Below are positions 943 to 23,081 of a stretch of DNA of 38,902 nt, piece after piece (the stretch's first letter is position 1; the number at the start of each line of letters is the position of its first letter). Below the pieces are notes generated by a model. The model ran no database searches, was not told where the DNA came from, and saw only the letters and a program-made list of their open reading frames with translations. The stretch covers positions 1-38,902 of the forward strand of contig JAQBPH010000262.1 of the NCBI GenBank assembly GCA_028287625.1, written 5' to 3'. Made by a program: the position numbers and the translations under genes. This DNA comes from Chloroflexota bacterium. Lineage in GTDB: Bacteria; Chloroflexota; Dormibacteria; Aeolococcales; Aeolococcaceae.

Positions 943-1124
943 GGCTGAGGCAGGATCCTAACGGCATGGCTCGCTGGTGGAAAGACGCTGGGGGACGACT
1001 GAATCTCTCAGACGCGACTGGGGGTTGCGACCAGGCCCGAGCGCCCACTCTGACAATCGCGTAATCTGAGGGGCATGGCTGCCCGACTGCCGGAACACGC
1101 CGAGGCGAGAGCGGGGCCGGCGGC

Positions 1125-2759: not shown

Positions 2760-5700
2760 TGCGGGCGACGATCGATGGGAACGAGGCGGCGGTGTCGGTC
2801 GCCTACCGGCTCAACGAGGTCTGCTGCATCTACCCGATCACGCCGTCGTCGCCGATGGCGGAGCTGGCGGACGAGTGGGCCAGCCAGCGGCGGCCCAACG
2901 TGTGGGGCACCGTGCCCGCCGTGGTTGAGATGCAGAGCGAGGGAGGCGCGGCCGGGGCTCTGCACGGCGCGCTGCAGGGCGGGGCGCTGGCCACGACCTT
3001 CACCGCCTCGCAGGGCCTGCTGCTGATGATCCCGAACATGTACAAGGTCGCCGGAGAGCTGACTCCCGCGGTGCTGCACGTCGCCGCCCGGTCGCTGGCG
3101 GCGCAGGGACTGTCCATCTTCGGCGACCACTCGGACGTGATGGCGGTGCGGCAGACGGGCTTCGCGATGCTCGCCTCGGCGTCCGTCCAGGAGGCCCACG
3201 ACCTCGCGCTGGTGGCGCACGCCGCCACGCTGCAGACGCGGGTGCCCTTCGTGCACTTCTTCGACGGCTTCCGCACCTCCCACGAGCTGAACACGGTCGA
3301 GCTGCTCTCCGACGACGACCTGCGTGCCCTGGTGCCGGAGGAGCTGGTCCGCGCGCACCGCGGACGGGCGCTGTCGCCGGACCGGCCGTTCATCCGCGGC
3401 ACCGCGCAGAACCCGGACGTCTACTTCCAGGCGCGGGAGACCGTGAACCCGTTCTACGCCCGCACCCCGGGCGCCGTCGAGAACGCGATGGCGCGCCTGG
3501 CCGAGCGCACCGGTCGCCGCTACCACGTCGTCGACTACGCCGGTCACCCGGAGGCGGAACGGGTGCTCGTCGTGATGGGCTCGGCCGCCGAGACCGTCCG
3601 CGAGACCGTGGCCCACCTCACCGCACGTGGCGAGCGGGTCGGGGTGCTGCAGGTGCGGCTGTTCCGGCCGTTCCCGGCCCGGGCCCTGCTCGAGGCGCTG
3701 CCTGCGAGCGTGCGCCGGCTCGCCGTCCTCGATCGGACCAAGGAGCCCGGTTCGAACGGTGAGCCGCTCTTCCTGGACGTGGTCGCGGCGCTGCTGGAGT
3801 CGCATGAGGACGGTGATCGGGCGGTCCTGCCGGTGGTGACCGGTGGCCGGTACGGCCTGTCGTCGAAGGAGTTCACCCCGGGCATGGTCGCCGGGGTGTT
3901 CGCGGAGCTGGAGCGCGAGCGGCCGCGGCGGGGGTTCACGATCGGCATCATCGACGACGTCTCCGGGACGAGCCTGCCCTACGACGCCTCGCTGGACATC
4001 GAGCCGGCCGGCACCGTCCGTGCGGTGTTCTACGGCCTGGGCTCGGACGGCACCGTCGGTGCGAACAAGAACACCATCAAGATTCTGGGGTCGGAGGAGC
4101 ACCTGCACGCCCAGGGGTACTTCGTCTACGACTCCAAGAAGTCGGGCTCCCAGACGGTGTCACACCTGCGCTTCGGATCCCAGCCGATCCGTGCGCCCTA
4201 CCTCGTCCAGCAGGCGAGCTTCGTCGGCTGCCATCACTTCGGGTCGCTGGACCGGGTCGACATGCTCGGGCGGGCGGCCACCGGCGCCACCCTGCTCCTC
4301 GACTGCCCGCACCCGCCGGATGGGGTCTGGGACGCGCTGCCTCGCCCGGTCCAGGAACAGATCCTCGCCAAGCGCATCGAGGTGTACGCGATCGACGCCG
4401 GCCGGATCGCCCGAGAGGTCGGTCTCGGCGGGCGGACCAACACCATCCTGCAGACCTGCTTCTTCGCCATCTCCGGCGTGCTGCCGCGCGAGGAGGCGAT
4501 CGCCCGGATCAAGGCCGCGATCGACAAGACCTACGGCCGGCGCGGCGCCGAGGTCGTCGAACGCAACCATGCGGCGGTGGACAGCGCGCTGGAGGGATTG
4601 CACCGGATCGAGGTGCCCGACCTGGTGACCTCCACTCGCGAGCTGCCGCCGGTCGTGCCCGCGGACGCGCCGGAGTTCGTCCGCAGCGTCACCGCGGCGA
4701 TGATCGCCGGCCGCGGCGACGACCTGCCGGTCAGCGCGCTGCCGGTCGACGGCACCTACCCGAGCGGCACCGCGGCGTACGAGAAGCGCAACATCTCCGA
4801 GCTCGTCGCGGTCTGGGACCCCGACCTGTGCATCCAGTGCGGAAACTGCAGCTTCATCTGCCCGCACAGCGTGATCCGGTCCAGGTACTACGACCAGTCC
4901 CGCCTGGACGGCGCGCCGGCCCAATTCCACTCGGCTCCCCTGGACGCCCGCGGCCTCCCGGACACCCGCTACACGCTCCAAGTGTACGTCGAGGACTGCA
5001 CCGGATGCGCTCTCTGCGTCGAGGCCTGCCCGGCGCTGGCGCCGGGCGACCCGGCGCGCAGGGCCATCAACCTCGCGCCACGCGAGCCGCTGGTGGCCGC
5101 CGAGCGGGAGAACATCGCCTTCTTCGAGACCCTGCCGCGAGCCGACCGGTCCCGGGTGGACTTCGGCACGGTGCGCGGCACGCAGTTCCTGGAGCCGCTC
5201 TTCGAGTTCTCCGGCGCCTGCGCGGGCTGTGGCGAGACGCCGTACATCAAGCTCCTGTCGCAGCTGTTCGGTGACCGGCTGACGGTCGCCAACGCCACCG
5301 GCTGTTCCTCGATCTACGGTGGGAACCTGCCCACCACACCGTGGACGACCGACGCCGACGGGCGCGGCCCAGCCTGGTCGAACTCGCTCTTCGAGGACAA
5401 CGCCGAGTTCGGGCTCGGCTTCCGGCTCACCGCCGACCAGCACACCGAGCTGGCGCGAAGGCGTCTTGCCGAGCTGCGGGAGGTGGTGGGGGCCGAGCTG
5501 GTGGACGGCATCCTCACCGCGCCGCAGCTCCGCGAGTCGGAGCTGCGTTCGCAACGCGAACGGGTGACCGAGCTGAAGCGGCGACTCGAGAGGCTCGACG
5601 GCCCCGCGGCAATCGACCTGCGCAGCGTTGTCGATCACCTGGTCCGGCGCAGCGTGTGGATCGTCGGCGGCGACGGCTGGGCCTACGACATCGGGTCCGG

Positions 5701-6328
5701 CGGGCTCGACCACGTCCTGGCCAGCGGGCGCAACGTGAACGTGCTGGTGCTCGACACCGAGGTCTACTCCAACACCGGCGGGCAGATGTCCAAGGCGACG
5801 CCGCTCGGCGCCGTCGCCAAGTACGCCTCCGCCGGCAAGACCGTGCCGAAGAAGGACCTCGCCCTCCAGGCGATCGCCTACGGCAACGTGTACGTCGCCC
5901 GGGTCGCGATGGGCGCCGATCCACAGCAGACACTGCGGGCCTTCCGCGAGGCGGAGGCCTACGACGGGCCGTCCCTGGTGATCGCCTACAGCCACTGCAT
6001 CGCGCACGGCATCGAGATGCGGGATGGGCTCAACCAGCAGTACCGCGCGGTGGCCAGTGGGCACTGGCCGCTGCTCCGCTACGATCCGGTCGCGCGCGCG
6101 GGGGACGGCAACCCGTTCCTGCTCGACTCGCCGCGGCCGCGCATCCCACTGGCCGACTACATCTACCGGGAGCTGCGGTACCGCGTGCTCGCGAACAGCG
6201 ACCCGGCGGAGGCTGAACGGCTGCTCGGCCTGGCCCAGCAGGCCGTCGAGCAGCGCTGGACCGTGTACGAGGAGATGGCGACCCGTGGCGCGCAGCGGTT
6301 CCCGGCGGACGCGCGGAAGGATCACTGA
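2756..6328 (+). CDS. nifJ: Pyruvate:ferredoxin (flavodoxin) oxidoreductase, single-polypeptide NifJ/YdbK type
   Basis: About 1190 aa from MMRATIDGNEAAVSVAYRLNEV. Internal ferredoxin domain CIQCGNCSFICPHS and CTGCALCVEACP. TPP domain GGDGWAYDIGSGGLDHV...LVLDTEVYSNTGGQ. The track ORF starts at 2576, but the ATG at 2756 overlaps the upstream stop and matches the usual PFOR N-terminus. Confidence 0.93.
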   Translation: MMRATIDGNEAAVSVAYRLNEVCCIYPITPSSPMAELADEWASQRRPNVWGTVPAVVEMQSEGGAAGALHGALQGGALATTFTASQGLLLMIPNMYKVAGELTPAVLHVAARSLAAQGLSIFGDHSDVMAVRQTGFAMLASASVQEAHDLALVAHAATLQTRVPFVHFFDGFRTSHELNTVELLSDDDLRALVPEELVRAHRGRALSPDRPFIRGTAQNPDVYFQARETVNPFYARTPGAVENAMARLAERTGRRYHVVDYAGHPEAERVLVVMGSAAETVRETVAHLTARGERVGVLQVRLFRPFPARALLEALPASVRRLAVLDRTKEPGSNGEPLFLDVVAALLESHEDGDRAVLPVVTGGRYGLSSKEFTPGMVAGVFAELERERPRRGFTIGIIDDVSGTSLPYDASLDIEPAGTVRAVFYGLGSDGTVGANKNTIKILGSEEHLHAQGYFVYDSKKSGSQTVSHLRFGSQPIRAPYLVQQASFVGCHHFGSLDRVDMLGRAATGATLLLDCPHPPDGVWDALPRPVQEQILAKRIEVYAIDAGRIAREVGLGGRTNTILQTCFFAISGVLPREEAIARIKAAIDKTYGRRGAEVVERNHAAVDSALEGLHRIEVPDLVTSTRELPPVVPADAPEFVRSVTAAMIAGRGDDLPVSALPVDGTYPSGTAAYEKRNISELVAVWDPDLCIQCGNCSFICPHSVIRSRYYDQSRLDGAPAQFHSAPLDARGLPDTRYTLQVYVEDCTGCALCVEACPALAPGDPARRAINLAPREPLVAAERENIAFFETLPRADRSRVDFGTVRGTQFLEPLFEFSGACAGCGETPYIKLLSQLFGDRLTVANATGCSSIYGGNLPTTPWTTDADGRGPAWSNSLFEDNAEFGLGFRLTADQHTELARRRLAELREVVGAELVDGILTAPQLRESELRSQRERVTELKRRLERLDGPAAIDLRSVVDHLVRRSVWIVGGDGWAYDIGSGGLDHVLASGRNVNVLVLDTEVYSNTGGQMSKATPLGAVAKYASAGKTVPKKDLALQAIAYGNVYVARVAMGADPQQTLRAFREAEAYDGPSLVIAYSHCIAHGIEMRDGLNQQYRAVASGHWPLLRYDPVARAGDGNPFLLDSPRPRIPLADYIYRELRYRVLANSDPAEAERLLGLAQQAVEQRWTVYEEMATRGAQRFPADARKDH

Positions 6329-7341
6329 TGGACCTGTCGACCGACTACATGGGCCTGCGGCTGCGCAACCCGCTGGTGGCGTCGGCGTCCCCGCTGTCCC
6401 AGACCGTCGACGGCGTCCAGCGACTGGCGGACGCCGGCGTCGGTGCGGTGGTGCTCTTCTCCCTCTTCGAGGAGCAGCTGCGCCGGGAGGCGGCGCAGAA
6501 CGCGCGGCTGATGGAAGCCGGCACCGAGAGCTTCGCGGAGTCGCTGTCCTACTTCCCCGTCGCGGCCGACAGGGAGGTCGGCCCGGCCCGGTACCTGTGC
6601 CTGCTGGAGCGCGCCGCCGCTGCCGTGGAGGTGCCGGTGATCGGCAGCCTCAACGGGGTCACGCCTGGCGGCTGGGTCGACTACGCGCGGGCGATGGAGG
6701 ACTCCGGGGCTGCCGCGATCGAGCTGAACATCTACTTCGTTCCCGGCGATCCGCACATCTCCGGCCGCGATGTCGAGAAGCGGCACATCGACATCCTGAC
6801 GCGCGTGAAGGCGGCGGTGACCGTGCCGGTGGCGGTCAAGCTGAGCCCGCACTTCAGCTCGACCGGTGAGGTGGCGCTGGGACTGGACCAGGCAGGTGCG
6901 GACGGGCTGGTGCTCTTCAACCGGTTCCTGCAGCCGGACATCGACCCGGAGACCCTCGCCGTGGTGTCGACCATCGACCTCTCCACGCCCGCGGAGGCCC
7001 GGCTGCCACGCACGTGGATCTCGATCCTGCACGGACGGGTGCGTGCCGCACTGGCGGCAACCACGGGCGTCGAGGGCCCGGCCGACGTGGTCAAGTACCT
7101 CCTCGCCGGCGCGAACGTGGTCATGACCGCCTCGGCGCTGCTGCGGCACGGCCCGGAGCATGCGGCCGTGCTCCTCGACGGCCTGTCCAGCTGGATGGAG
7201 CGCAAGGGATTCGCGACCGTCGACGAGCTGCGCGGGATGCTCTCGCTACCGCTCGGCACGGACGAGGCGGCACACGAGCGCGCCGGCTACGTCAGCGTCC
7301 TGCGTGCAGCCAACAGGAGCGCCGCCCACGGTCCATGGTGA
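6328..7341 (+). CDS. Dihydroorotate dehydrogenase-like / PreA-like TIM-barrel flavoprotein
   Basis: MGLRLRNPLVASASPLS...IELNIYFVP...VAVKLSP...GADGLVLFNR pattern of class-1 DHOD/dihydropyrimidine dehydrogenase family. Its start overlaps the nifJ stop by 1 nt (TGATG). Confidence 0.8.
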   Translation: MDLSTDYMGLRLRNPLVASASPLSQTVDGVQRLADAGVGAVVLFSLFEEQLRREAAQNARLMEAGTESFAESLSYFPVAADREVGPARYLCLLERAAAAVEVPVIGSLNGVTPGGWVDYARAMEDSGAAAIELNIYFVPGDPHISGRDVEKRHIDILTRVKAAVTVPVAVKLSPHFSSTGEVALGLDQAGADGLVLFNRFLQPDIDPETLAVVSTIDLSTPAEARLPRTWISILHGRVRAALAATTGVEGPADVVKYLLAGANVVMTASALLRHGPEHAAVLLDGLSSWMERKGFATVDELRGMLSLPLGTDEAAHERAGYVSVLRAANRSAAHGPW

Positions 7342-10387: not shown

Positions 10388-12520
10388 TCACCGACAGACG
10401 AAGTTCGTCGCAGGACCTCGTCGTGGCCGGACAGTTTTTGCGACGTCGATGCGCCAGTCCACGGCGATGCAGCCCCGCGGTGTGGCGAGCACCGGGTTGA
10501 GGTCGACTGCGATCACCTCGGGGACCCCGACCAGGAGATCGCCGACGGCGGAGACCAGCGAGGCCAGCGCATCCAGGTCCACCGCCGCCGCGCCCCGGAC
10601 GCCGGACAGGACGGCGAATCCGCGCAGCCGGCGCAGGAGCGCGAGCGCGTCCCGGCCGTCGAGCGGTGCCAGCCCGAAGGCCACGTCGTCGAGCACCTCC
10701 ACGAGGACGCCACCCAGGCCGACCATCACCGCCGGACCCAGCTCAGCGTCCCGCAGGCCGCCGACGATGACCTCGACTCCACGCTCCTGCCGCTGCACCA
10801 GCACCTGGGTGCCGGGTCGCAGGAGGAGAAGGTCGGCGGTGGCGGCCGCCAGGGCGGTCGCGTCCACGAGCCCGAGACGCACCCCGTGCGCATCGCTCTT
10901 GTGGAGCAGCGCGGGGTGGATCGCCTTCGCCACGACCGGGTAGCCCATCGCCCCGGCCGCGGCGAGCGCCCCCTCCGTGCTGTCGCACAGCGCGGACTCG
11001 ACGAGCGGCACGCCGGCGACGCGGAGGAGCCGGTCCGCCTCGATGGGCGGCAGCACACCGGGCGGAAGCGGGCCGATCCCCGCCGGTCGTGGCCGGGACA
11101 CCGCGGGCGGGCGCACCGTGTGCCGTGCCTGTGCGTAGCGGGCGGCGTGGCCCACCGCCCGTGCGGTCCGCTCCGGCCATTCGAAGCAGGGCACCCCCGC
11201 CGCCTGGAGGAGGTCCGCGTTGGCCCGCGCCGCCCGGGGCGCCACCCAGCACACGTAGACGGGGACGTCGACGGAGTCGGCGCGCAGCCGCAGCGTCGCG
11301 TCGCGCACCGCGTCCGCGCCGCGCTCGTCGATGGCCGAGCGGTGGAGGAGGACGGGCACCACGATGTCGACCTCACCGGAGCGGGCGATGCGGTCGATCA
11401 GCAGCGGGTAGAGCTCGGTGTAGCGATGCCAGACCGGGGTCATGTCCACCGGATTGGTGGTGCTGCCCAGGGGCGGCAGGACGGCACGCAGCTCCGCCTG
11501 CAGTGCGGAGGAGAGCTCAGGGGTCTGCAGGCCCTCGTCGGCGAGCAGGTCTGTGAGCTCGACGCCGGTGCCGCCCGAGTTGGTGATGATGGCCACCCGC
11601 GGGCCCGGAGGCCAGGGGTGCGCGGCGAGCGCCCGGGCGGTGTCGAGCATCTCCAGGCCAGAGCGTGCCTCGACGATGCCCGCCTGGGCGAATGCGCCCG
11701 CGGTGACCGCGTGGGTGCCGGCCAGGGCGGCGGTATGGAAGCGCGCCGCCCGCGCCCCCGCGCTCGACCTGCCCGTCTTGGCCACGATCACGGGCTTCAG
11801 CGGTGTGGTGAGCCTCGCCTCGGTGATGAAGTCGCGGCCGCCGGCCATGGACTCGAGGTAGAAGCAGAGGATGCCGCTGCTCGGATCGTCGCGGAGGTAG
11901 CGGAGCAGCTCGGCATCGCCGATGTCGATCTTGTTTCCGGCGGCGTAGACCTTGGCAAAACGCGTGCCCTCGTCGACGCCGAGGGCGTGGATGGCCATGC
12001 CGTAGGCGCCCGACTGGGTGACCAGGCTGATCTCGCCCCCACCCTCCGCCGAGCCGGTCGCCAGCGAGGCGTTGAGGCCGAGGTCGCAGTTCTGCACGCC
12101 GAAGCAGTTGGGGCCGACCACGCGGACCCCGCCGGCCCGGGCGGCCGCGACGAGCTCGGCCTGCAGCCGGACGCCCTCCGGCCCCGTCTCGGCGAAACCG
12201 CCACTGATGACCACGGCGGCTGTGATGCCGCGGAGGGCGGCATCCCGGATGACCTCGGGGACATCGGCAGCGGGAACGACGACGACGGCGAGGTCGACCT
12301 CGCCGTCGACCTCGCGCAGGCTGGCCACCGCCGGTCGACCGCCCACCATGCCGCCGCCGCGCGTCACCGGGATCACCTCGCCCGGAAATCCTGACAGGTT
12401 GTGCCAGAACGTCTCGCCGATCCTCCCCGGCCGGTCGGAGGCGCCGACCAGTGCGACCCGCCGGGGCTCGAAGACCGCAGCCAGGCCGAGCGGACGCGGG
12501 GCTTCCGGCCTCAACAGCAC
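10388..12520 (-). CDS. ADP-forming (NDP-forming) acetyl/acyl-CoA synthetase, fused alpha-beta type
   Basis: CoA-binding N-terminus FEPRRVALVGASDRPGRIG, then VVGPNCFGV, then the C-terminal ATP-grasp part. The track ORF extends to 13153, but residues before about 12520 are Arg/Pro junk. GTG 12520 overlaps the stop of the upstream fragment ORF. Confidence 0.85.
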   Translation of the reverse strand: MLLRPEAPRPLGLAAVFEPRRVALVGASDRPGRIGETFWHNLSGFPGEVIPVTRGGGMVGGRPAVASLREVDGEVDLAVVVVPAADVPEVIRDAALRGITAAVVISGGFAETGPEGVRLQAELVAAARAGGVRVVGPNCFGVQNCDLGLNASLATGSAEGGGEISLVTQSGAYGMAIHALGVDEGTRFAKVYAAGNKIDIGDAELLRYLRDDPSSGILCFYLESMAGGRDFITEARLTTPLKPVIVAKTGRSSAGARAARFHTAALAGTHAVTAGAFAQAGIVEARSGLEMLDTARALAAHPWPPGPRVAIITNSGGTGVELTDLLADEGLQTPELSSALQAELRAVLPPLGSTTNPVDMTPVWHRYTELYPLLIDRIARSGEVDIVVPVLLHRSAIDERGADAVRDATLRLRADSVDVPVYVCWVAPRAARANADLLQAAGVPCFEWPERTARAVGHAARYAQARHTVRPPAVSRPRPAGIGPLPPGVLPPIEADRLLRVAGVPLVESALCDSTEGALAAAGAMGYPVVAKAIHPALLHKSDAHGVRLGLVDATALAAATADLLLLRPGTQVLVQRQERGVEVIVGGLRDAELGPAVMVGLGGVLVEVLDDVAFGLAPLDGRDALALLRRLRGFAVLSGVRGAAAVDLDALASLVSAVGDLLVGVPEVIAVDLNPVLATPRGCIAVDWRIDVAKTVRPRRGPATNFVCR

Positions 12521-12825
12521 GCGGACGCGACGCCGTGGCCGAAGCGGCGCTCGAGCTCGGCGGGCGCGAACTCCGGCCGGACGCCCTCGCCGACGCGACG
12601 CTCGAAGCCGCGCTGCCGGCGGAAGAAGTCCGGCGGGTGGGAGAGCGGCGCCTCGGGCGAGCCGATGACACCGCTCACCAGGTAGGGAAGCCCGCAGAGC
12701 CCGTGGGCGGCGTGAGCGGTGGCCTCGAGCACGACCACCTCGAGATCGGGGTCGACCCGGCGCGCCGCGGATGCCGCGGACATGCCGGAGGCTCCGCCGC
12801 CGATGACCACGAGCCGCTCGGTCAC
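12511..12825 (-). pseudogene. N-terminal fragment of an FAD pyridine nucleotide-disulfide oxidoreductase (CoA-disulfide reductase/NADH oxidase-like), only about 104 codons
   Basis: GTG 12825 with GGAGG 5 nt upstream. VTERLVVIGGGASGMSAASAARRVDPDLEVVVLE (FAD Rossmann), then LCGLPYLVSG (single redox Cys motif of the CoADR/Nox family). The ORF stops where the NAD domain should begin. Confidence 0.5.
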
Positions 12826-13004
12826 CTCGCCCTCCGCGTGTCGCCTCGCCGGTCGGGGACAGCGACGACGATAGGCGCAGGCAGCCCGGCAGCCCACAGC
12901 TTGGAGAGGGGAAGCAGGCCATCACATTCGTCTGCCCAGGACAGGGTCCGCGCCGGCTCGGGTGCCTAGTCTTGATCGCGTCGACCATCACCGGAGGTGT
13001 GCAC

Positions 13005-13805
13005 GTGTGGGACCGTCCTGACTTCCTCGATCTACCCGAGCGCTCCTGCAAGCCCAGGCGGGGAGGTCTGACCCACGTGCTCGACAAGGGCATGCCGATC
13101 GCCGAGCTGGAGGGCCTCCTGGCGGGGGCGCGCGACGTCGTCGACGTCATCAAGGTGGGCTGGGGGCTCGCCTACATCGACCGCGACATCGACGCCCGCA
13201 TCGCCGCCTGCCACCAGGCCGGGGTGATCGTCTCGCTGGGCGGTACCCTGCTGGAGATCGCGGTGGGACAGGGCCGCCTCACCGAGCTCTGCCGCTGGGC
13301 GAGACTGCATGGCGTCGACGCCCTGGAGGTCTCCAACGGTCTCGGCCGCATCTCCGCCCGCCGCAAGACCGAGCTGGTCGCCGCTCTGGCCGGGGACTTC
13401 GTGGTTCTGGCCGAGGCGGGCAGCAAGGACGGCAACCTCCCGGTCGTCGCCGGGGCCTGGCTCGACGAGATGGAGGCCGACCTCGCGGCCGGTGCCAGCT
13501 GGGTGATCGCCGAGGGCAGGGAGAGCGGCACCGTGGGCCTGTACCGCGCCGACGGCACCGTCCGCGCCCAGCTGGTCGAGGCGATCGCCGCTCGCGTCCC
13601 CGTCGACCGGGTGATCTTCGAGTCCCCGCAGAAGGCGCAGCAGACGTGGCTGATCGAGCAGGTCGGGGTCGATGTCAACCTTGGCAACATCCCGCCGCAC
13701 GAGGTGCTGCCCCTGGAGACGCTGCGTCTGGGGCTGCGGGCCGACACCGCCCACCTGTACCTGCCGGCCCGCGCCGACGAGTCGAGGATCGTGGCGCTGC
13801 GATGA
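13005..13805 (+). CDS. comA: (2R)-phospho-3-sulfolactate synthase (ComA family)
   Basis: DFLDLPERSCKPRRGGLTHVLDKG...DVIKVGWG...GTLLE...LEVSNG...AEAGSKD...VIAEGRESG is the characteristic ComA pattern. GTG 13005 lies 7 nt after GGAGG. TTG 12972 is an alternative start. Confidence 0.88.
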   Translation: MWDRPDFLDLPERSCKPRRGGLTHVLDKGMPIAELEGLLAGARDVVDVIKVGWGLAYIDRDIDARIAACHQAGVIVSLGGTLLEIAVGQGRLTELCRWARLHGVDALEVSNGLGRISARRKTELVAALAGDFVVLAEAGSKDGNLPVVAGAWLDEMEADLAAGASWVIAEGRESGTVGLYRADGTVRAQLVEAIAARVPVDRVIFESPQKAQQTWLIEQVGVDVNLGNIPPHEVLPLETLRLGLRADTAHLYLPARADESRIVALR

Positions 13806-14710
13806 TCCCCGAGCCCGAGCCGAACACCATCACCCGGCCGTACCGAGGGCTCTCGGTGCAGGAGGTCGACGTCGCCCTGCATCCGAGCGAGCTGGTCCCC
13901 TTCCTGCTCGGACGTGAGGTCTACCGCCGCACCCACTACCTCGTGCTCCGCCACGGCGACGGCCATGCCCTGGTGGCGGTGCGCAAGGCGTCGGAGGTGC
14001 CGCTCTTCTCCCCGGTGGTCGCGGCGCGCGTCCTGGCGGGACCGGAGGCGACCGTCTTCGTGCACGAGCCCGACGTCGACGTGGGCAACGCCACCGCCCT
14101 GGCCCGCGCGGCTGCGCGACACGCCCGGGCCGGGGCACGCGCCTACGTCGTGATGGGCCGCTTCGAGCACATCAACTTCATCTGGGAGCCGCGGCCGCTG
14201 CGGGTCACGGTCACGGAGGTGGTGCCTCCCGAGCCCCCCAAGCTGCTCGCCCAGGCGACGCAGGCCGTGGCCTTCGACGAGGACCTGCCCCCGCTCGAGC
14301 TCGAGCTCGAGGCGGTGGACATCCGTGCGCTCGCCCGCACTCACCCGGCCGAGCGCTACCTGCTGCCCTGCCGGGGCTCCGGCGTCGACCTGCCCGCCCC
14401 GGTGAATTTTCTCGACACCCGGCCCGAGACCCGGCGGGACTGGCTGCTCATCGGCTGCGAGCGCTCGCTCCAGTTCCACCGCCACTTCTACGGTGACGAG
14501 CCCGGCCGGGTGGACCTCTGCCCGCGGAACCGCGACCGAGGTGACGGCTCGGCGCTGAGGCTGGTGAAGTGCTGCCTGCTGGAGCGCGGCATCGAGGTCG
14601 AGGGCCGGACCGCGGTCGTCCCCTGGGGGGCCAACCTCGACGAGGTGCGCGCCGCCCTGCGCCGGCTGACGGGGGTCGACTCCGCCGCACCCGCCCGTCA
14701 GGCGGTGTAG
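13802..14710 (+). CDS. Uncharacterised protein, 302 aa, translationally coupled inside the comA operon
   Basis: ATG 13802 overlaps the comA stop (ATGA). Non-repetitive composition. The C-terminal half is Cys-containing (LLPCRG, LIGCERS, DLCPRN, LVKCCLLERG). No family recognised by eye. Confidence 0.7.
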   Translation: MIPEPEPNTITRPYRGLSVQEVDVALHPSELVPFLLGREVYRRTHYLVLRHGDGHALVAVRKASEVPLFSPVVAARVLAGPEATVFVHEPDVDVGNATALARAAARHARAGARAYVVMGRFEHINFIWEPRPLRVTVTEVVPPEPPKLLAQATQAVAFDEDLPPLELELEAVDIRALARTHPAERYLLPCRGSGVDLPAPVNFLDTRPETRRDWLLIGCERSLQFHRHFYGDEPGRVDLCPRNRDRGDGSALRLVKCCLLERGIEVEGRTAVVPWGANLDEVRAALRRLTGVDSAAPARQAV

Positions 14711-14724
14711 AGGAGAGCGCACCG

Positions 14725-16140
14725 GTGGGAGCACACCCGACGGACTCGGCGATCTTCCGCCACCTCTGGGTCACCTCGGAGCTGTACACGCTCCTCGACG
14801 ACCGCGGCCGGCTCCAGTCCTGGCAGGAGATCCTCGCCGCCCTGGCCGAGGCCCAGGCGGAGGTGGGGCTCATCCCCGAGGAGGCTGCCCGGCAGATCCG
14901 CACCCACGCCTCGGTCGACCGTCTCGACCCGGAGCGCGTCGGCGAGCACACCCGGGCCGCGGCACACTCCACCCTGGGCCTGATCCGGTGCATGCGCGAG
15001 GTGCTGCCCGAGCCGGGGCGCACATGGGTCTACTACGGCGCCACCGTCCAGGATGTCTCCGACACCTGGGGCGCGCTGGTCATGCGCGAGGTGGGGCGCG
15101 TCCTGTACCGCGACCTGCGACGCCTGGAGGCGGCGACGCTCGACCTGGCGGAGCGACATCGTGAGACGGTGATGTCGGGCCGCACGCACGGCCAGCCCGG
15201 GCTTCCCATCAGCTTCGGCTTCAAGGCCGCCGTCTGGGCGGCGGAGCTCCGCCGCCACCTCGACCGGCTCGCCGAGGGGCGGCACCGGTGGGAGGTGGTC
15301 CAGCTGGGCGGGGCTCTCGGCACCATGGAGTTCTGGGGCGACCGGTCGCTGCCCCTGCTCCACGCCTTCGCCACCCGCCTCGAGCTCGGCGTCGCCGAGA
15401 TCACGTGGCTGACCGCCCGCGACCGCGTCGCCGAGTTCCTCACCCTTCTGGCCATGGTCACCGCGACCCTGGCCAAGATCGGCAACGAGGTCTACCAGCT
15501 GCAGCGCCCGGAGATCGGCGAGCTGCGCGAACCCTTCAGCCTCGGCGCGGTGGGCAGCATCACCATGCCGCACAAGCGCAACCCCGAGCTCTCCGAGCAC
15601 CTGGGCACCCTCGCCCGGGTGGTCCGCGCCGACGCCGCCCTGGCGCTGGAGGGCATGGTGCACGAGCACGAGCGCGACGGCCGGGCCTGGAAGACCGAAT
15701 GGCTGGCCATTCCTGAGGCGTGCCTGCTCACCGGCGCGGCGCTGGCCCTCGGGGTGCGGCTGCTCGAGGGTCTGGAGGTGGACATCGGCCGGATGTCGGC
15801 CAACCTTCAGGACCGCGGCGGCTATCCCCTGTCGGCGCTGGCCCTGCGCGCCCTCTCCGACCGGCTCGGCAAGCACGCGGCGCACGAGGCGGTGTACCGA
15901 GCCGCGATGCACGGCCTGGAGACGGGGTTGTCGCTGCGCGATGCGCTGCTCGCCGACGCTGAGGTCGCCGCCGCGCTCGAGCCGGCGGCGCTCGATCGTG
16001 AGCTCGATCCCCGCCGGGCCCTGGGCACCGCGCAGGCGATGGTGGACCGCGTCGTCGTGGTCGCCCGCGCCGCCCGAGCAGCCGAGCCCGAGGAGCTGCG
16101 GCCGCTGCACCCCGCGGTGTCGTATGTCCCGAGTCGCTGA
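14725..16140 (+). CDS. Aspartase/fumarase-superfamily lyase, adenylosuccinate lyase / 3-carboxymuconate cycloisomerase-like (XcbC-like candidate)
   Basis: GTG 14725 lies 7 nt after AGGAGAG. Motifs: TVQDVSDT, MSGRTHGQPG and the signature loop GSITMPHKRNP. Confidence 0.85.
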   Translation: MGAHPTDSAIFRHLWVTSELYTLLDDRGRLQSWQEILAALAEAQAEVGLIPEEAARQIRTHASVDRLDPERVGEHTRAAAHSTLGLIRCMREVLPEPGRTWVYYGATVQDVSDTWGALVMREVGRVLYRDLRRLEAATLDLAERHRETVMSGRTHGQPGLPISFGFKAAVWAAELRRHLDRLAEGRHRWEVVQLGGALGTMEFWGDRSLPLLHAFATRLELGVAEITWLTARDRVAEFLTLLAMVTATLAKIGNEVYQLQRPEIGELREPFSLGAVGSITMPHKRNPELSEHLGTLARVVRADAALALEGMVHEHERDGRAWKTEWLAIPEACLLTGAALALGVRLLEGLEVDIGRMSANLQDRGGYPLSALALRALSDRLGKHAAHEAVYRAAMHGLETGLSLRDALLADAEVAAALEPAALDRELDPRRALGTAQAMVDRVVVVARAARAAEPEELRPLHPAVSYVPSR

Positions 16141-17119
16141 CCGCGCCGCCCTGACCGCACCCCGGCTGCGGCTGGGAACGACGCCGACGCCGCTCGAGCC
16201 CGCGCCCCGCCTCTCCCGCGCCGCCGGGGTGGAGATCTGGCTGAAGCGCGACGACCTGAGCGGGCTGGGCCTGGGCGGCAACAAGGTGCGGGCGCTGGAG
16301 TACCTGCTCGCCGACGCCACCGCCCGCGGCGCCGACTGCCTGGTCACCGGTGCGGGCCCGCAGTCGAACTGGGCCATGCTCGCGGCCCTCGCCGCCCGCC
16401 GCTGCGGGCTCGACGCCTTCCTCGTCCTCTACGGGGATCCCTCGCCACGCACCGGCAATCTCCTCCTCGACCACCTCGCCGGTGCCGACGTCCGCTTCAC
16501 CGGCGACCCCGACCGGGCCTCGGTCGACGCGGGCATCTACGCACTGGCGGCCGAGCTCGCCGCCGCGGGCCGGCGCCCCTACCCCCTTCCCCGGGGCGGC
16601 GCGACCGGCCTCGGCGCGCTGGGCTACGTCCGGGCCAGTCTCGAGCTGCTGGGCCAGCTCGAGGATGTGGGCGTCGGCGCCGCGAGCCTCTGGCTGCCCA
16701 CCGGGTCGTGCGGCACCCAGGCGGGCCTGGTCGCCGGGACGCGCTGGCTGTGCCCGGGATACGAGGTGGTCGGGGTGACCGTCAGCCGGCCGGTCGAGGA
16801 GTGCGTCGACCGGATCTCGCGTCTCGCCGCCGAGGCCACCGCCCGGCTCGGACTCGGCGGCGCCCCCACGCGCGACGGCGAGGATGTCAGGGTTCTCGGT
16901 GGCTTCGCCGGTCCCGGATACGGCAGGCCCTCCGCGCAGGGCGAGGCGGCCGCGCGCCTGGTCGCCCGCAGCGAGGGGGTGCTGCTCGACCCGGTCTTCG
17001 GTGCCAAGGCGATGGCGGCCCTGCTCGACGCCGCCGCCTCGGGGCGGGCGGCCGGGCCGCTGGTCTTCCTGGTGACCGGCGGAGCCCCCACCCTGTTCGC
17101 CGGGGAGGCGTCGCTGTGA
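16124..17119 (+). CDS. PLP-dependent ACC deaminase / D-cysteine desulfhydrase family enzyme (XcbE-like candidate)
   Basis: TPLEPAPRLS...IWLKRDDLSGLGLGGNKVRALEYLL (PLP Lys in GGNK) and the C-terminal LDPVFGAKAMAAL. Overlaps the upstream gene by 17 nt. Confidence 0.85.
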   Translation: MSRVADRAALTAPRLRLGTTPTPLEPAPRLSRAAGVEIWLKRDDLSGLGLGGNKVRALEYLLADATARGADCLVTGAGPQSNWAMLAALAARRCGLDAFLVLYGDPSPRTGNLLLDHLAGADVRFTGDPDRASVDAGIYALAAELAAAGRRPYPLPRGGATGLGALGYVRASLELLGQLEDVGVGAASLWLPTGSCGTQAGLVAGTRWLCPGYEVVGVTVSRPVEECVDRISRLAAEATARLGLGGAPTRDGEDVRVLGGFAGPGYGRPSAQGEAAARLVARSEGVLLDPVFGAKAMAALLDAAASGRAAGPLVFLVTGGAPTLFAGEASL

Positions 17120-18645
17120 GTCAGCCGCCGCCCGACGGCTATCTGGGCGCCGAGGCACGGATCCGCTCGGGGCCGGCGCCCGAGCTGGTGGCGGCGGGCT
17201 ACGCGCTGGAGATCGCCGACGCCCGGGTGCTTCACCACGGGCTCACCGTGGCCGACCTGGCTCACGTCCTCGAGCTCGTCGAGGGGGGCGTCATCCCCGA
17301 TGGCGAGGCAACCCGGCTGCTCTCGGCCCTGATCGAGCTGCTCGACGTCGCCCCCGAGGACTTCCCCTACGACCCCGTCTACGGCGACGCCTACAACAGC
17401 CGGGAACGCGAGCTGGAGCGGCAGCTGGGCACCACCGCCGGCTGGCTGCACACGGGCCGGACGCGCCGCGAGGCGGTGCGCATCGCGACCCGCCTCGCCC
17501 TGCGGCGCTGGCTGCTCGACCTGCATCGCGCCACCACCGCACTGGTCGGGGCGCTGGCCGACACCGCGGAGGCACACGCCGAGACGCTCTGGGCCGACAG
17601 CACGTACCTGCAGCCGGCCCAGCCGGCCACCTTCGGCCATTACCTGGGAAGCTTCGCCGAGGAGGCCATGCGCCACCTCGACCGCCTGGAATCGGCCCAC
17701 GGCTGGGCCGACCGCTCCCCCGCCGGGGCCGGGGGGGTGGGCGGCACGCGCATCCCGCTCGACCGGGCGCGGCTCGCCGACCGCCTCGGCTTCGCCGCGC
17801 CGGGCGCGCACACGCGGGACGCCATGTGGGCGACGGACGGACTCGTCGACGCGGTGCTCGCCGGCGTCCAGGCGGTGACCACCGTCGACCGTCTCGCCGA
17901 GGACCTGGAGATCCTCGCCAGCCCCGGCTTCGGGCTGATCGAGCTCGACGCCTCCCTCTGCAGAGCCTCCGTGCTCATGCCCCAGAAACGCAACCCCTAC
18001 GCCCTGGTCGTCATCCGCGGAGGGGCCGGAGTGCTGGTGGGCCGGCTGACCGGGCTGCTGGTCGTCCAGCGCACGCCGTCGGCGCAGACGGACAACTGGC
18101 TCTACGCCTGCGGCGAGGTGGGCGGCGCGCTCACCCTGGCCCGCAACCTCGTCGACCTGGGCGCGGAGGTGGTGCGCACCCTGCGGGTGGACGCCGCGGC
18201 CATGGCGAGGAGCGCGACCACCAATTTCACCGCGGCCACGGACATCTCCGAGGAGATCAGCCTCCGGTCGGAGCTCGACTACCGCTCCGCCTACCGGGTC
18301 GTCGGCCGGGCGGTCGCGGGAGCGCTCGCTCGCGGCGCCTCGAGCCTCGATCCCGCCAGTCTCGACGACGCCGCCCAGGCGGTGATCGGCCGGCCCCTGG
18401 GCCTCGACCTCGCTCACCTGGAGGCGGCCTCCGACCCGCGCCGGGCACTGACCACACGGGGGTGCCAGGGAGGCTCGGCACCCGCCGCGGTCCGCGATCA
18501 CTGCCGGGCGGTGCGATGGCGGCTGGACGCCGCCCGGCGGTGGCGCGCCGAGCTCGACCGGTCGGCGCGGGACGCGGAGGCCCGGCTGGTCGCAGAGGCT
18601 CGGCGCCGGGCCTCGACGCCCGCCGCGGCGCCGGTCGGAGACTGA
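17116..18645 (+). CDS. Aspartase/fumarase-superfamily lyase, argininosuccinate lyase-like (XcbD-like candidate)
   Basis: GTGA overlap with the upstream stop. Motifs: HTGRTRREA, YLQPAQPATFGH and the signature loop LMPQKRNPY. Confidence 0.85.
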   Translation: MSQPPPDGYLGAEARIRSGPAPELVAAGYALEIADARVLHHGLTVADLAHVLELVEGGVIPDGEATRLLSALIELLDVAPEDFPYDPVYGDAYNSRERELERQLGTTAGWLHTGRTRREAVRIATRLALRRWLLDLHRATTALVGALADTAEAHAETLWADSTYLQPAQPATFGHYLGSFAEEAMRHLDRLESAHGWADRSPAGAGGVGGTRIPLDRARLADRLGFAAPGAHTRDAMWATDGLVDAVLAGVQAVTTVDRLAEDLEILASPGFGLIELDASLCRASVLMPQKRNPYALVVIRGGAGVLVGRLTGLLVVQRTPSAQTDNWLYACGEVGGALTLARNLVDLGAEVVRTLRVDAAAMARSATTNFTAATDISEEISLRSELDYRSAYRVVGRAVAGALARGASSLDPASLDDAAQAVIGRPLGLDLAHLEAASDPRRALTTRGCQGGSAPAAVRDHCRAVRWRLDAARRWRAELDRSARDAEARLVAEARRRASTPAAAPVGD

Positions 18646-18691
18646 CCGCAGCGGGCGCGCGCGGCGCAACGAGGGGGCCGGCAGTGCCCGC

Positions 18692-18868
18692 AACGGGCTG
18701 CCCTTCACCCTGAGCCTGAGCTGCGGCACCTGGGGCGGAAACATCACCACCGAGAACATCAACGCCCGGCACTTCGTCAACCTCACCTGGGTGTCCCGGC
18801 CCGTCGCACCGCACCCGGTGACCGAGGAGACGCTGTTCGCCGACCACTGGCGGCGCCACGGTCGCTGA
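18692..18868 (+). pseudogene. C-terminal remnant of an acylating (CoA-dependent) aldehyde dehydrogenase
   Basis: Own translation in the frame not listed in the track: NGLPFTLSLSCGTWGGNITTENINARHFVNLTWVSRPV...*. This matches the conserved end of the acylating ALDH domain (AdhE-type ...SLTLGCGSWGGNS.SENV..KHL.N.K.V). The roughly 400 N-terminal residues are absent. The fragment abuts the stop of the preceding lyase gene. Confidence 0.55.
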
Positions 18869-18885
18869 GGGCGAGCCGCCGCTGG

Positions 18886-20598
18886 TCAGCAGGTCGGGGC
18901 GCGCCGGCCGGCTCCGGGCGCCGGCGGGGGGACCTCCTCCTCCCGCCGGGCCCTGACCATCTGCCAGGCCCGCGTGGAGAGCTGAAGGCTGAAGCGCGTG
19001 TCGGGGTTGTTGAGGTCGTACCCGGTGAGGTCGCGGATCCGCTGCAGCCGGTACTTCAGCGTGCTGGGGTGCACGAACAGGGCCTCGGCGGTGGCGATGT
19101 AGTTCCCCCCGTGCTCGAGGAACAGGGTGAGGGTCCGGACCAGGTCGCTGTGCTTCCGCCTGTCGTAGTCGAGCAGCCCGCCCAGCCGCTCCCGGACGAA
19201 GCGCTCCACCGCGCCGAGGTCCGGCAGCTCGCAGAACAGACGGTAGACGCCCAGGTCGTCGAAGCTCGAGGCGCGATCGGCGCGGGAGCAGGCGTCCTCC
19301 ATGCGCAGGGTCAGCTCGGCCTCGCGGTGGGAGCGGGCGAAGTCGGCAGGTCGCTCGCAGAGGCCGCCGACGCCGAGCCGGCAGCGGCCGCCTCCGAGCT
19401 CGCGCAGGACGGCCTGGCGGAACTCCTCCCAGGGCACCTCCTGGCTCGCCAGGACGAGCACGGCGCCCTTGCGAGCGACCATGAGCGTGCCCACCGAGAG
19501 GTCGAGGGAGGCACGGCGGACGGCCTGGAAGAAGACGTCGTCGTCGCGGGTCCGGCCCCGGCCCTCGGCGATGACCACCCGGTGGGAGCGACCCAGGTCG
19601 TAGCCCAGCCCCTGGGCGCGGCTCTGCACGGTCTCGTCGTCGGTGCCGTCGAGCAGCGACTCGACGAGGTCGCGCCGGAGCCGGAGCTCGGCCTCGCTCA
19701 GGCTGCGGAGACGGGCCAGCTCCATCGCGAGGATGGTGGCCCCGTGCTCCAGTGCGACCCGCTCGTGCTCTCCGCAGTCCCCCCCCGGGTCGACGAGGGC
19801 GATGACCCCGAGCAGGTCGCCCCGGGGCCGCGCCAGGGCGACCAGGCGATTCCCGTCACGGCTCGGGCGCGCCTCGCGGATCAACCGGCGGAGCAGCTGC
19901 TCGCGCTTGGGTGCCGGGTCCTTCGGATAGGGCTCCGTCCTGTCGGGGCCGGCCCAGGCCCGCAGATTGCCGTAGCGATCCTCGATGGCGACCGGGTAGC
20001 CGGTGAGCTCGTGGATGGCCTGGGCCAATCCCTCCTGGCCCTCGCAGCGCACCGCGACCTGGGTCAGGCGCTTGTGGATGTCCATGCTCCGCTGCAGCGC
20101 GCCGAGCGTCTCCTCGAGCCGCTTGGCGGTGGCCCGCTCCTGGGCGTGAAGGCGCGCATTGGCCAGCGCGACCCCCGTCTCCTGGGCCAGGACCTGAAGG
20201 AGGAACCGGTTCTCGGTGGAGGGCTCCACGGCGGCCCCCACGACCAGGAAGCTGCCGGTGCGTCCGCCCAGCGCGAAGGCCCACGCCCAGGCGTCACCGG
20301 GGATCCGCACCGGGCCGCCGACGCCGTCCAGAGAGTGGAGCTGCGCTTCCAGCTGGGAGAGAGCCGGCTCTGCGCGAGGCCCGTCGAGGGCCTGCCAGCC
20401 ACTGCCCTCGATGTAGAGGGCGCGCAGGCGAGCGGTGCCCAGCGAGGGAATCGAGGAGGTGGCCAGGTGGGTGATCTGGCCCTCGTCGTCGCACTCCGTC
20501 ATCAGGACTGCGAACAGCAGCAGGCCCCGGAGGTTGGAGAGCTGGTCGCGAAGCACCGCGTCGGGTGGATACCCCGGGGTCGGCGCCGCGGCGGTCAT
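18886..20598 (-). CDS. PucR/CdaR-family transcriptional regulator with N-terminal GAF-like sensor region
   Basis: C-terminal PucR HTH GGNYIATAEALFVHPSTLKYRLQRIRDLTGYDL. 570 aa. Its ATG overlaps the stop of the upstream MEDS gene (ATGA at 20595-20598). Confidence 0.85.
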   Translation of the reverse strand: MTAAAPTPGYPPDAVLRDQLSNLRGLLLFAVLMTECDDEGQITHLATSSIPSLGTARLRALYIEGSGWQALDGPRAEPALSQLEAQLHSLDGVGGPVRIPGDAWAWAFALGGRTGSFLVVGAAVEPSTENRFLLQVLAQETGVALANARLHAQERATAKRLEETLGALQRSMDIHKRLTQVAVRCEGQEGLAQAIHELTGYPVAIEDRYGNLRAWAGPDRTEPYPKDPAPKREQLLRRLIREARPSRDGNRLVALARPRGDLLGVIALVDPGGDCGEHERVALEHGATILAMELARLRSLSEAELRLRRDLVESLLDGTDDETVQSRAQGLGYDLGRSHRVVIAEGRGRTRDDDVFFQAVRRASLDLSVGTLMVARKGAVLVLASQEVPWEEFRQAVLRELGGGRCRLGVGGLCERPADFARSHREAELTLRMEDACSRADRASSFDDLGVYRLFCELPDLGAVERFVRERLGGLLDYDRRKHSDLVRTLTLFLEHGGNYIATAEALFVHPSTLKYRLQRIRDLTGYDLNNPDTRFSLQLSTRAWQMVRARREEEVPPPAPGAGRRAPTC

Positions 20599-21302: not shown

Positions 21303-21515
21303 CGGTGAAGGTGGTGGCCGCGGATCGTCGGTGGGCTCGGCAGGAGCCGCGTGCGCCACGACCACCGTCGACCGACGCCAGGCCGGCCTGGTCGCGGGAG
21401 GACGATCCCTGCACGCTCTTTCATCCCCGAGCGACATCGTCCGAGGTGGCCCGGTGGAGTGACCATGGGCCAACGATTCGGACGTCCGGGACGCACGGAC
21501 ACGCGAGGGCTGAGC

Positions 21516-23081
21516 ATGGACATCAGGCACCGGTCGCTGTCGATGGCAGACTGGCAGTCACTCATCGACCGGGCGTTGGCAGGCGAGATCGCCGAGCCGA
21601 TCTACAACGTCAACCGTGCCGACAGCCACGACTACGACGCCATCTTCATCGGTGGCGGCGCTGGTGGCAGGTTCGGCTCGGCGTACCTGCGCGCCCAGGG
21701 TGGCCGGCAGCTGACCATCGACCGGTGGCCCTTCCTCGGCGGCTCCTGCCCGCACCAGGCCTGCGTCCCCCACCACCTCTTCTCCGAGGCAGCCCGCGAG
21801 CTGGATCTGGCGAGGCACCTCTCCGGCCGGCTCTTCTTCCCCGAGTTCGACGAGAACCGAGCCTCGGTGCTGGACATGGTGGAGCTCTTCCGCCAGGGGC
21901 GCAACTCGGCGCATGCCTTCATGAACTGGCAGAGCAAGGAGCAGCTGGAGATGGAGTACATCCTCAACGCTCCAGCGACGGTGCTCGACGCGCACACCGT
22001 GGAGGTGGCCGGCGAGCGGTTCCGGGCTCGCAACCTTGTCCTGGCCACCGGGGCGCGCACCGAGTGGCCGGACATGCCCGGCATCGGGTTGCCTGGCGTC
22101 TTCGACTTCGCCAGCCTGGTCGAGGAGCTCGACTACAACCCACGCCGCTGCGTCATCATCGGCGGCTCCAAGGTGGCCCTGGAGTACGGCTCCTTCTTCC
22201 ACGCCGCCGGTTGCCACACCACCATCCTCTCGCGCAGCCCGCTGATGCGCACCGCGAGCCTCCATCACGTCGACGAGGATCTCCGCCGGTACGTGGTCGA
22301 CAACATGCGCATGCGCGGCATGGTGATCGAGGAGGGTGCCGACACTCTGGCCATCGTCGGCGGTGGTCGGGCAGAGGGGGTCGTGGCCCGGCTCGCCGAC
22401 GGCAGCTCGGTGACCCTGGACGCGGACATGGTCTTCGTGGCGACCGGAGAGCGGGCCCAGTCGCAGCCCTTCGTCGATGCCCTCGGTGTCGATGTGAATG
22501 CCCGCGGCTCGATCCAGGTCGACGCCCGGATGCGAACCTCGGTACCCGGCGTCTACGCCATCGGCGACATGATCGGCGCGCCCATGGAGATGTTCAAGGC
22601 CCGCAAGTGCGGCATGACCGCGGCCCGGAACATCATGGGAGAGCCGTATGAGTTCGACTTCAGCGAGTACCCGGACTTCCTCCACACCACCTATGAGGTC
22701 ACCTGGGTCGGGCTCACCGAGGCCGAGGCCCGGGAGCGGTACGACGACGTCATCATCATCCAGATGCCGCCGCCGGGTCTCGGGAACGAGGAGCTCCCCC
22801 TTCCCTGCGCGGAGGGCAGCATGCTCTACGCGTTCACCAAGCCGGCGCTCAGCGGCTTCCAGAAATGTGTGATCGACGCCGGCAGCCGCCGAATCGTCGG
22901 CTGCCACCACGTGGGCTACGGAGCCAAGGACGCGTTCCAGTATCTCGACCACCTGATCCACCGACCCGCGGGGTTGACCATCGACCAGATGGCCGAGATG
23001 AACGAGCTGTTCCTCAATCCAGAGCACTTCATCCAGCTCTGCCGCCTTCGTGCCGGGCGGCGCGAGCTGGTCAGCCTCTGA
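21516..23081 (+). CDS. xecC: 2-oxopropyl-CoM reductase (carboxylating) / 2-KPCC-type NADPH disulfide oxidoreductase
   Basis: 521 aa from MDIRHRS, with GAGGG 6 nt upstream. Motifs: YDAIFIGGGAGGRFGSAYL, redox CxxxxC in GGSCPHQACVPHHLF and second Rossmann VIIGGSKVALEYG. The C-terminal ELFLNPEHFIQL has Phe and His (F-x4-H) in place of the canonical DSOR His-x4-Glu dyad, the published 2-KPCC hallmark. Confidence 0.8.
   Translation: MDIRHRSLSMADWQSLIDRALAGEIAEPIYNVNRADSHDYDAIFIGGGAGGRFGSAYLRAQGGRQLTIDRWPFLGGSCPHQACVPHHLFSEAARELDLARHLSGRLFFPEFDENRASVLDMVELFRQGRNSAHAFMNWQSKEQLEMEYILNAPATVLDAHTVEVAGERFRARNLVLATGARTEWPDMPGIGLPGVFDFASLVEELDYNPRRCVIIGGSKVALEYGSFFHAAGCHTTILSRSPLMRTASLHHVDEDLRRYVVDNMRMRGMVIEEGADTLAIVGGGRAEGVVARLADGSSVTLDADMVFVATGERAQSQPFVDALGVDVNARGSIQVDARMRTSVPGVYAIGDMIGAPMEMFKARKCGMTAARNIMGEPYEFDFSEYPDFLHTTYEVTWVGLTEAEARERYDDVIIIQMPPPGLGNEELPLPCAEGSMLYAFTKPALSGFQKCVIDAGSRRIVGCHHVGYGAKDAFQYLDHLIHRPAGLTIDQMAEMNELFLNPEHFIQLCRLRAGRRELVSL

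Follow-up and report, generated by a model that had tools for sequence, protein, structure and literature searches.

An ORF between comA and xcbD in the DNA of an uncultured soil bacterium probably encodes an actinobacterial-type XcbA, the last enzyme of the bacterial CoM pathway

Previous work reconstituted the bacterial CoM pathway with the proteins XcbA to XcbE of Xanthobacter autotrophicus Py2 (Wu et al., PNAS 2022, PMC9457059). In that study XcbA, which "was not found to be homologous to any known protein", was reddish-brown, showed a rhombic EPR signal of the kind expected for [2Fe-2S]1+, had a redox potential of -372 mV, contained nine Cys without a recognisable motif and reduced sulfoethanethioaldehyde, the product of XcbE, to CoM; the puzzle that accompanied these data was that a [2Fe-2S] centre stores one of the two electrons needed for the reduction (PMC9457059). 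Before that, a 308-aa hypothetical gene lying directly after xcbB1/comA in Mycolicibacterium strains and in Nocardioides sp. JS614 had been described as 'xcbF1' (Cortes-Albayay et al., 2021, PMC8727900). Here we analysed a stretch of DNA of 38,902 nucleotides (the 38.9-kb window), in which a 302-aa ORF is located between comA and a lyase gene. The initial annotation of this ORF had regarded it as uncharacterised and without a recognisable family, and had put it forward as a candidate for a missing or alternative step of CoM synthesis. The question raised in this way is already answered in print (PMC9457059; PMC8727900).

Indeed, the ORF product has a family. It matched the NCBIfam model NF052538 ("XcbA family protein") with 438.4 bits (cut-off 150), residues 4-291 aligning on profile positions 3-290 of 293, and it matched Pfam DUF7714 (PF24830) over its full length (E 1e-90, 304 bits vs 25). 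In BLASTP it was colinear over 285 aa with Xaut_5070 of X. autotrophicus Py2 (46% identity, E 4e-85), all five of its Cys aligning with Cys of that protein, and the identity was 66% to NOCA_RS00560 of Nocardioides sp. JS614 (annotated as "hypothetical"), 64-68% to two plasmid copies of Mycolicibacterium chubuense NBB4 and about 40% to plasmid copies of Methylocystis iwaonis; the closest named relatives were in MAGs labelled Dormibacterota and Pseudonocardiaceae. The plasmid pXAUT01 holds three XcbA-type copies, of which Xaut_5070 is one, and Wu et al. cloned XAUT_RS25610 with a primer whose encoded N-terminus does not match that of Xaut_5070 (PMC9457059). We hold it to be highly probable (about 0.88) that the 302-aa ORF is an actinobacterial-type XcbA orthologue, the last enzyme of the bacterial CoM pathway, and we predict that its product would act as a [2Fe-2S] sulfoethanethioaldehyde reductase. 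The present analysis shows that the protein belongs to the family, is placed among its orthologues, holds a conserved place in the operon, is translationally coupled, evolves under purifying selection and has the conserved set of five Cys, while cluster type, redox potential and reaction are taken from the literature on the Xanthobacter protein; the function given to the window protein would go back to a single in-vitro study, and the homologue studied there shares at most about 46% identity with it. The identity of XcbA is already explained, its role having been published in 2022 and curated family models being at hand. Of the initial proposal, the reduction step that it named agrees with the present assignment, whereas the idea of a missing step falls away, XcbA having already been assigned to it (PMC9457059).

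The gene is part of a complete and tightly coupled operon with the order xcbB(comA)-A-D-E-C (Table 1), the junctions being ATGA at B/A, a 14-nt gap at A-D, a 17-nt overlap at D/E and GTGA at E/C. The length and position of the ORF, the overlap of its ATG (13802-13804) with the comA TGA (13803-13805), and the GTG start of xcbD 14 nt past the xcbA stop with a GGAGAG box between them (14712-17) were all found exactly as first described. The gene that follows does encode a lyase, as had been stated; this lyase is XcbD (adenylosuccinate-lyase-like) and not the phosphate-eliminating XcbC. The comA gene starts at TTG 12972 or at a later start near 13005. The best NCBIfam matches of the window XcbE and XcbC were NF052537 (XcbE, 325 bits, under the cut-off of 450) and NF052535 (XcbC, 400 bits, under the cut-off of 575), both cut-offs being of the strict 'exception' type. 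In the bacterial pathway, sulfite is joined to PEP by XcbB/ComA, phosphate is then eliminated by XcbC, which yields sulfoacrylate, and cysteine is attached by XcbD, which yields 3-sulfopropionylcysteine; the PLP enzyme XcbE decarboxylates and cleaves this compound to sulfoethanethioaldehyde, and XcbA, with its [2Fe-2S] centre, reduces the thioaldehyde to 2-mercaptoethanesulfonate (CoM). For annotation, this means that the gene should be named xcbA and that the window carries the genes of a complete bacterial CoM pathway; the finding exposes no open step of that pathway.

Table 1. Genes of the CoM operon and conserved Cys codons of xcbA in the window
Feature	Coordinates	Strand	Description
xcbB/comA, phosphosulfolactate synthase	12972..13805	+	Pfam ComA PF02679, E 2e-74; 63% identity to JS614 ComA
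xcbA	13802..14710	+	302 codons plus TAG (stop 14708-14710); 302-aa XcbA/DUF7714 protein
Cys190 codon, PC motif	14369..14371	+	invariant in 55/55; candidate Fe-S ligand
Cys219 codon, GC-x-S motif	14456..14458	+	invariant in 55/55; candidate Fe-S ligand
Cys240 codon, CP motif	14519..14521	+	invariant in 55/55; candidate Fe-S ligand
Cys257-Cys258 codons, [KR]CC motif	14570..14575	+	C257 invariant in 55/55, C258 in 54/55
xcbD, 3-sulfopropionylcysteine synthase, adenylosuccinate-lyase-like	14725..16140	+	NF052536, 686 bits vs cut-off 600
xcbE, PLP enzyme, D-cysteine desulfhydrase family	16124..17119	+	PALP domain; 59% identity to JS614 homologue
xcbC, phosphosulfolactate phosphate-eliminating lyase, argininosuccinate-lyase-like	17116..18645	+	57% identity to JS614 homologue

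A HMMER search for the XcbA family gave 486 representative clusters at 50% identity, and 55 diverse members were placed in a maximum-likelihood tree. The window XcbA was located in a clade with support of 100/97, which holds all five members with a known CoM context (the window, Xanthobacter, JS614, Methylocystis and the metagenomic P0164), and the nadA-linked members fell outside this clade, on the other side of the tree. Three such distant DUF7714 members (L087:4187-5026, L091:6001-6915 and L092:6001-6906) adjoin a genuine nadA, which exceeds the NF006878 cut-off, as well as a radical-SAM/SPASM gene, and no comA or xcb genes were seen near them in these related loci; a fourth distant member, on a short contig, adjoins a UbiD-family gene. 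DUF7714, nadA and the radical-SAM/SPASM gene look like a recurrent three-gene module. The nadA-linked branch resembles the window XcbA in belonging to the same fold family, in passing the NF052538 cut-off (186-214 bits) and in keeping all five Cys, but differs from it by an identity of only about 30% and by having no comA or xcb genes nearby. Because these distant members also pass the NF052538 cut-off, belonging to the family would by itself neither settle the substrate nor demonstrate a part in making CoM; in the case of the window XcbA, this is supplied by context and phylogeny.

The window XcbA has only five Cys, all in the C-terminal half: LLPC190RG, LIGC219ERS, DLC240PRN and KC257C258LLERG. 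These four contexts had all been quoted in the initial annotation, which was right to take the Cys-rich half as a functional clue. Among the 55 diverse members four of these Cys are invariant and C258 is present in 54 (Table 1). Other family members carry 5-11 Cys, so the window protein, with exactly the five conserved ones, represents the minimal set. Cys257 and Cys258 are candidates for the fourth ligand and for a redox-active or catalytic thiol. An AlphaFold model built on a 58-sequence alignment had a pLDDT of 95.5 and a pTM of 0.90 (pLDDT 90 for the C-terminal domain, 144-294, modelled separately), and in it the Cys are at or just past the C-terminal ends of successive beta-strands (186-188, 215-218, 235-238 and 252-257) of an alpha/beta C-terminal domain, a placement that, in the model, would be typical of a cofactor-binding edge. 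From this arrangement we infer that the four invariant Cys (C190, C219, C240 and C257) may ligate the [2Fe-2S] cluster, with C258 as a neighbouring redox or catalytic thiol. A C258 thiol beside the cluster could allow a one-electron cluster to join in a two-electron reduction, and would in this way address the puzzle of the one stored electron out of two (PMC9457059).

The modelling and structural search that had been proposed at the outset gave a confident model and no significant relative in the PDB. In Foldseek against the PDB, the best E was 1e-3 for the whole model (TM <= 0.23) and 0.12 for the C-terminal domain (TM <= 0.27), neither significant, and profile searches against PDB sequences yielded nothing significant either (best E 0.9 and 1.2). 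The top names in the Foldseek lists, RsmE and DJ-1/PfpI, were rejected as noise (TM < 0.3, rmsd > 10 A). At the sensitivity of these sequence and Foldseek searches, the modelled XcbA fold has no solved relative. A bolder interpretation, which we offer tentatively and consider doubtful on balance, is that XcbA/DUF7714 represents a structurally new type of Fe-S enzyme, in which, within the pattern C-x28-C-x20-C-x16-CC, four invariant Cys would hold the cluster and the fifth, as a redox thiol, would link a cluster that stores one electron to a C=S reduction that takes two, with a second job in the nadA/radical-SAM module. The minimal set of five Cys offers precise targets for ligand mutagenesis, given that the earlier study could not identify a cluster-binding motif (PMC9457059). 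The residual value of the locus is in this five-Cys minimal signature, in the lack of a solved structural relative and in the sister branch linked to nadA and radical-SAM genes.

When proteins are handled aerobically, their [4Fe-4S] clusters often break down to [2Fe-2S] clusters. It seems unlikely to us that the native cofactor of XcbA is a [4Fe-4S] or other cluster located beside a Cys257-Cys258 redox thiol, in the manner of ferredoxin:thioredoxin reductase or heterodisulfide reductase: the five conserved Cys (four invariant plus C258) are one above the need of a [2Fe-2S] cluster and the Xanthobacter protein was purified by aerobic Ni-NTA chromatography (PMC9457059), but its EPR and UV-visible data fit [2Fe-2S] (PMC9457059), a Pfam scan at E <= 0.1 found DUF7714 alone and matched neither the HdrB CCG nor the ferredoxin:thioredoxin reductase domains, and no structural match to proteins of the CCG/FTR type was obtained. 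The [2Fe-2S] centre is the cofactor that we predict for the window XcbA.

Another account accepts XcbA as an Fe-S protein and gives it an indirect role in vivo: it might work with XcbE by transferring electrons or relaying thiols, or it might carry and protect the reactive thioaldehyde, and the reduction itself would be done by a thiol such as cysteine. The one-pot reaction did give CoM without added reductant, and cysteine caused no visible reduction of the XcbA cluster (PMC9457059); moreover, related proteins of the family are encoded outside CoM clusters, next to nadA and radical-SAM genes, and the CoM cluster of Methylohalobius crimeensis has no XcbA homologue (PMC11507031). However, CoM was formed when XcbA was added to the filtered product of XcbE (PMC9457059), and xcbA is kept, under purifying selection, in nearly all of the xcb clusters examined, so we judge this account very unlikely and retain XcbA as the predicted thioaldehyde reductase.

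The conservation of the locus was followed in a narrow pattern scan with one genome per species, which returned 264 genomes with a relative, and 80 loci were fetched. Homologues beside comA and xcb genes, which the initial annotation had asked for, were found: comA was directly upstream on the same strand in 65/76 related loci with enough upstream DNA, xcbD was directly downstream of xcbA in 66/72, and 41/45 loci flanked by 7 kb on either side contained all four other xcb genes. Further, of the 67 loci that had comA upstream on the same strand, 46 kept both the start codon of xcbA and its 4-nt overlap (RTGA) with comA. Together with the coupling in the operon, these counts agree with the early view of the ORF as a conserved partner co-expressed with the CoM enzymes. 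By the Nei-Gojobori method, dN/dS of xcbA was 0.25-0.26 in comparison with metagenomic copies of 97% identity and 0.17-0.33 with copies of 71-77% identity, far from the value near 1 that would have counted against a functional gene, and xcbA is thus under purifying selection. For expression, contigs from two soil metatranscriptome runs, about 98% identical, cover 14082-14404 and 14416-14677; the evidence is weak, as these contigs belong to relatives at the strain level and may reflect carried-over DNA. None of the three outcomes named beforehand as speaking against the gene (no linkage elsewhere, no purifying selection, no translation) was observed for xcbA.

The GC content of xcbA by codon position was 0.79/0.48/0.94, similar to that of the neighbouring genes in this DNA of 72% GC, and more than 1,997 homologues of its protein were found. 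xcbA is a real gene and not a chance ORF of high-GC DNA, because codon-position GC, dN/dS, the number of homologues and the conserved start and overlap with comA all say so. The reading of 13802-14710 as a chance open frame or a decaying gene, which the abundance of long spurious ORFs in high-GC DNA and the gene remnants flanking the island on both sides might invite, is already refuted by the coding-type GC periodicity, the dN/dS, the full-length profile match and the high model pLDDT. An upstream GTG at 13646, which would make a 354-aa ORF, was rejected as the xcbA start, since alignments to homologues begin at residue 1 and the RTGA overlap has been retained. Neither a sigma-70-like promoter nor an intrinsic terminator was found when 12400-19000 was scanned, a search that is uninformative at 72% GC.

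The window island is similar to the plasmid cluster of JS614, with an EtnE-like epoxyalkane:CoM transferase (85% identity over the 142 aa compared), a CoA ligase, the xcb operon, and PucR-type and MEDS regulators. The CoA-transferases and SDR of the JS614 cluster are missing from the island, and no alkene monooxygenase was found in the 38.9-kb window. An N-terminal stub of an FAD-dependent pyridine-nucleotide-disulfide oxidoreductase (76 aa, residues 4-79 of 455, 63% identity) is located at 12589-12816 (-), whereas the JS614 gene is intact and divergent from comA. At 18668-18865 (+), right after xcbC, there is a C-terminal tail of the JS614 aldehyde dehydrogenase (66 aa, residues 405-470, 83% identity), and because of this second remnant the analysis suggests that the window island derives from an etn-type cluster by trimming.

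The 921-aa ORF at 10388-13153 (-), listed for an ADP-forming acyl-CoA synthetase, extends too far: its resemblance to the JS614 protein begins near 12484, and approximately the first 220 residues are rich in Arg and Pro and come from reading through the opposite strand. Three genes in a row at 1065-7341 (+), upstream of the CoM island, encode a GltD/PreT-like Fe-S flavoprotein, a full-length NifJ-type PFOR (2492-6328) and a DHODH-like flavoprotein; they are a possible source of low-potential electrons, and nothing ties them to XcbA. A pyridine-nucleotide-disulfide oxidoreductase with a dimerisation domain, 2-KPCC-like, is encoded at 21309-23081 (+), divergent from the MEDS/PucR pair, and homologues of it were present in 22/80 related xcb loci.

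In the wider survey, xcb operons with an EaCoMT-like gene were common among soil Actinomycetota, both cultured and uncultured, with Pseudonocardiaceae, Kribbella, Amycolatopsis, Geodermatophilaceae and Streptomyces among them, and the species-level genomes with a match in the narrow pattern search extend far beyond the known degraders of alkenes and vinyl chloride. This spread fits a CoM-dependent epoxide metabolism that is more widespread in soil than one would expect from the small number of alkene oxidisers in culture.

When the window was compared with the known CoM clusters, the Xanthobacter copy Xaut_5070 was found to match the same family models as the window XcbA and to adjoin, like it, a phosphosulfolactate synthase gene in a CoM cluster. 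Xaut_5070 is immediately upstream of that gene on pXAUT01, and the gene order there is A-B-C-D, as against B-A-D-E-C in the window; its product has nine Cys, the number given for XcbA in PMC9457059, as against five. Among the loci inspected, the order B-A-D-E-C was present in JS614, in pMYCCH.01 of NBB4 and in one Methylocystis locus. The clusters of JS614 and NBB4 are on plasmids of ethene and vinyl-chloride degraders and have an intact CoA-transferase, SDR, FAD-oxidoreductase and aldehyde dehydrogenase, whereas the window comes from an uncultured high-GC soil bacterium and its island has lost these genes or keeps them as stubs. JS614, NBB4 and the window have in common a divergent EaCoMT/CoA-ligase arm and MEDS/PucR regulators, and the 'xcbF1' genes of JS614 and NBB4 resemble the window xcbA in sequence (64-69% identity), in their identical position and in the B-A-D-E-C order.
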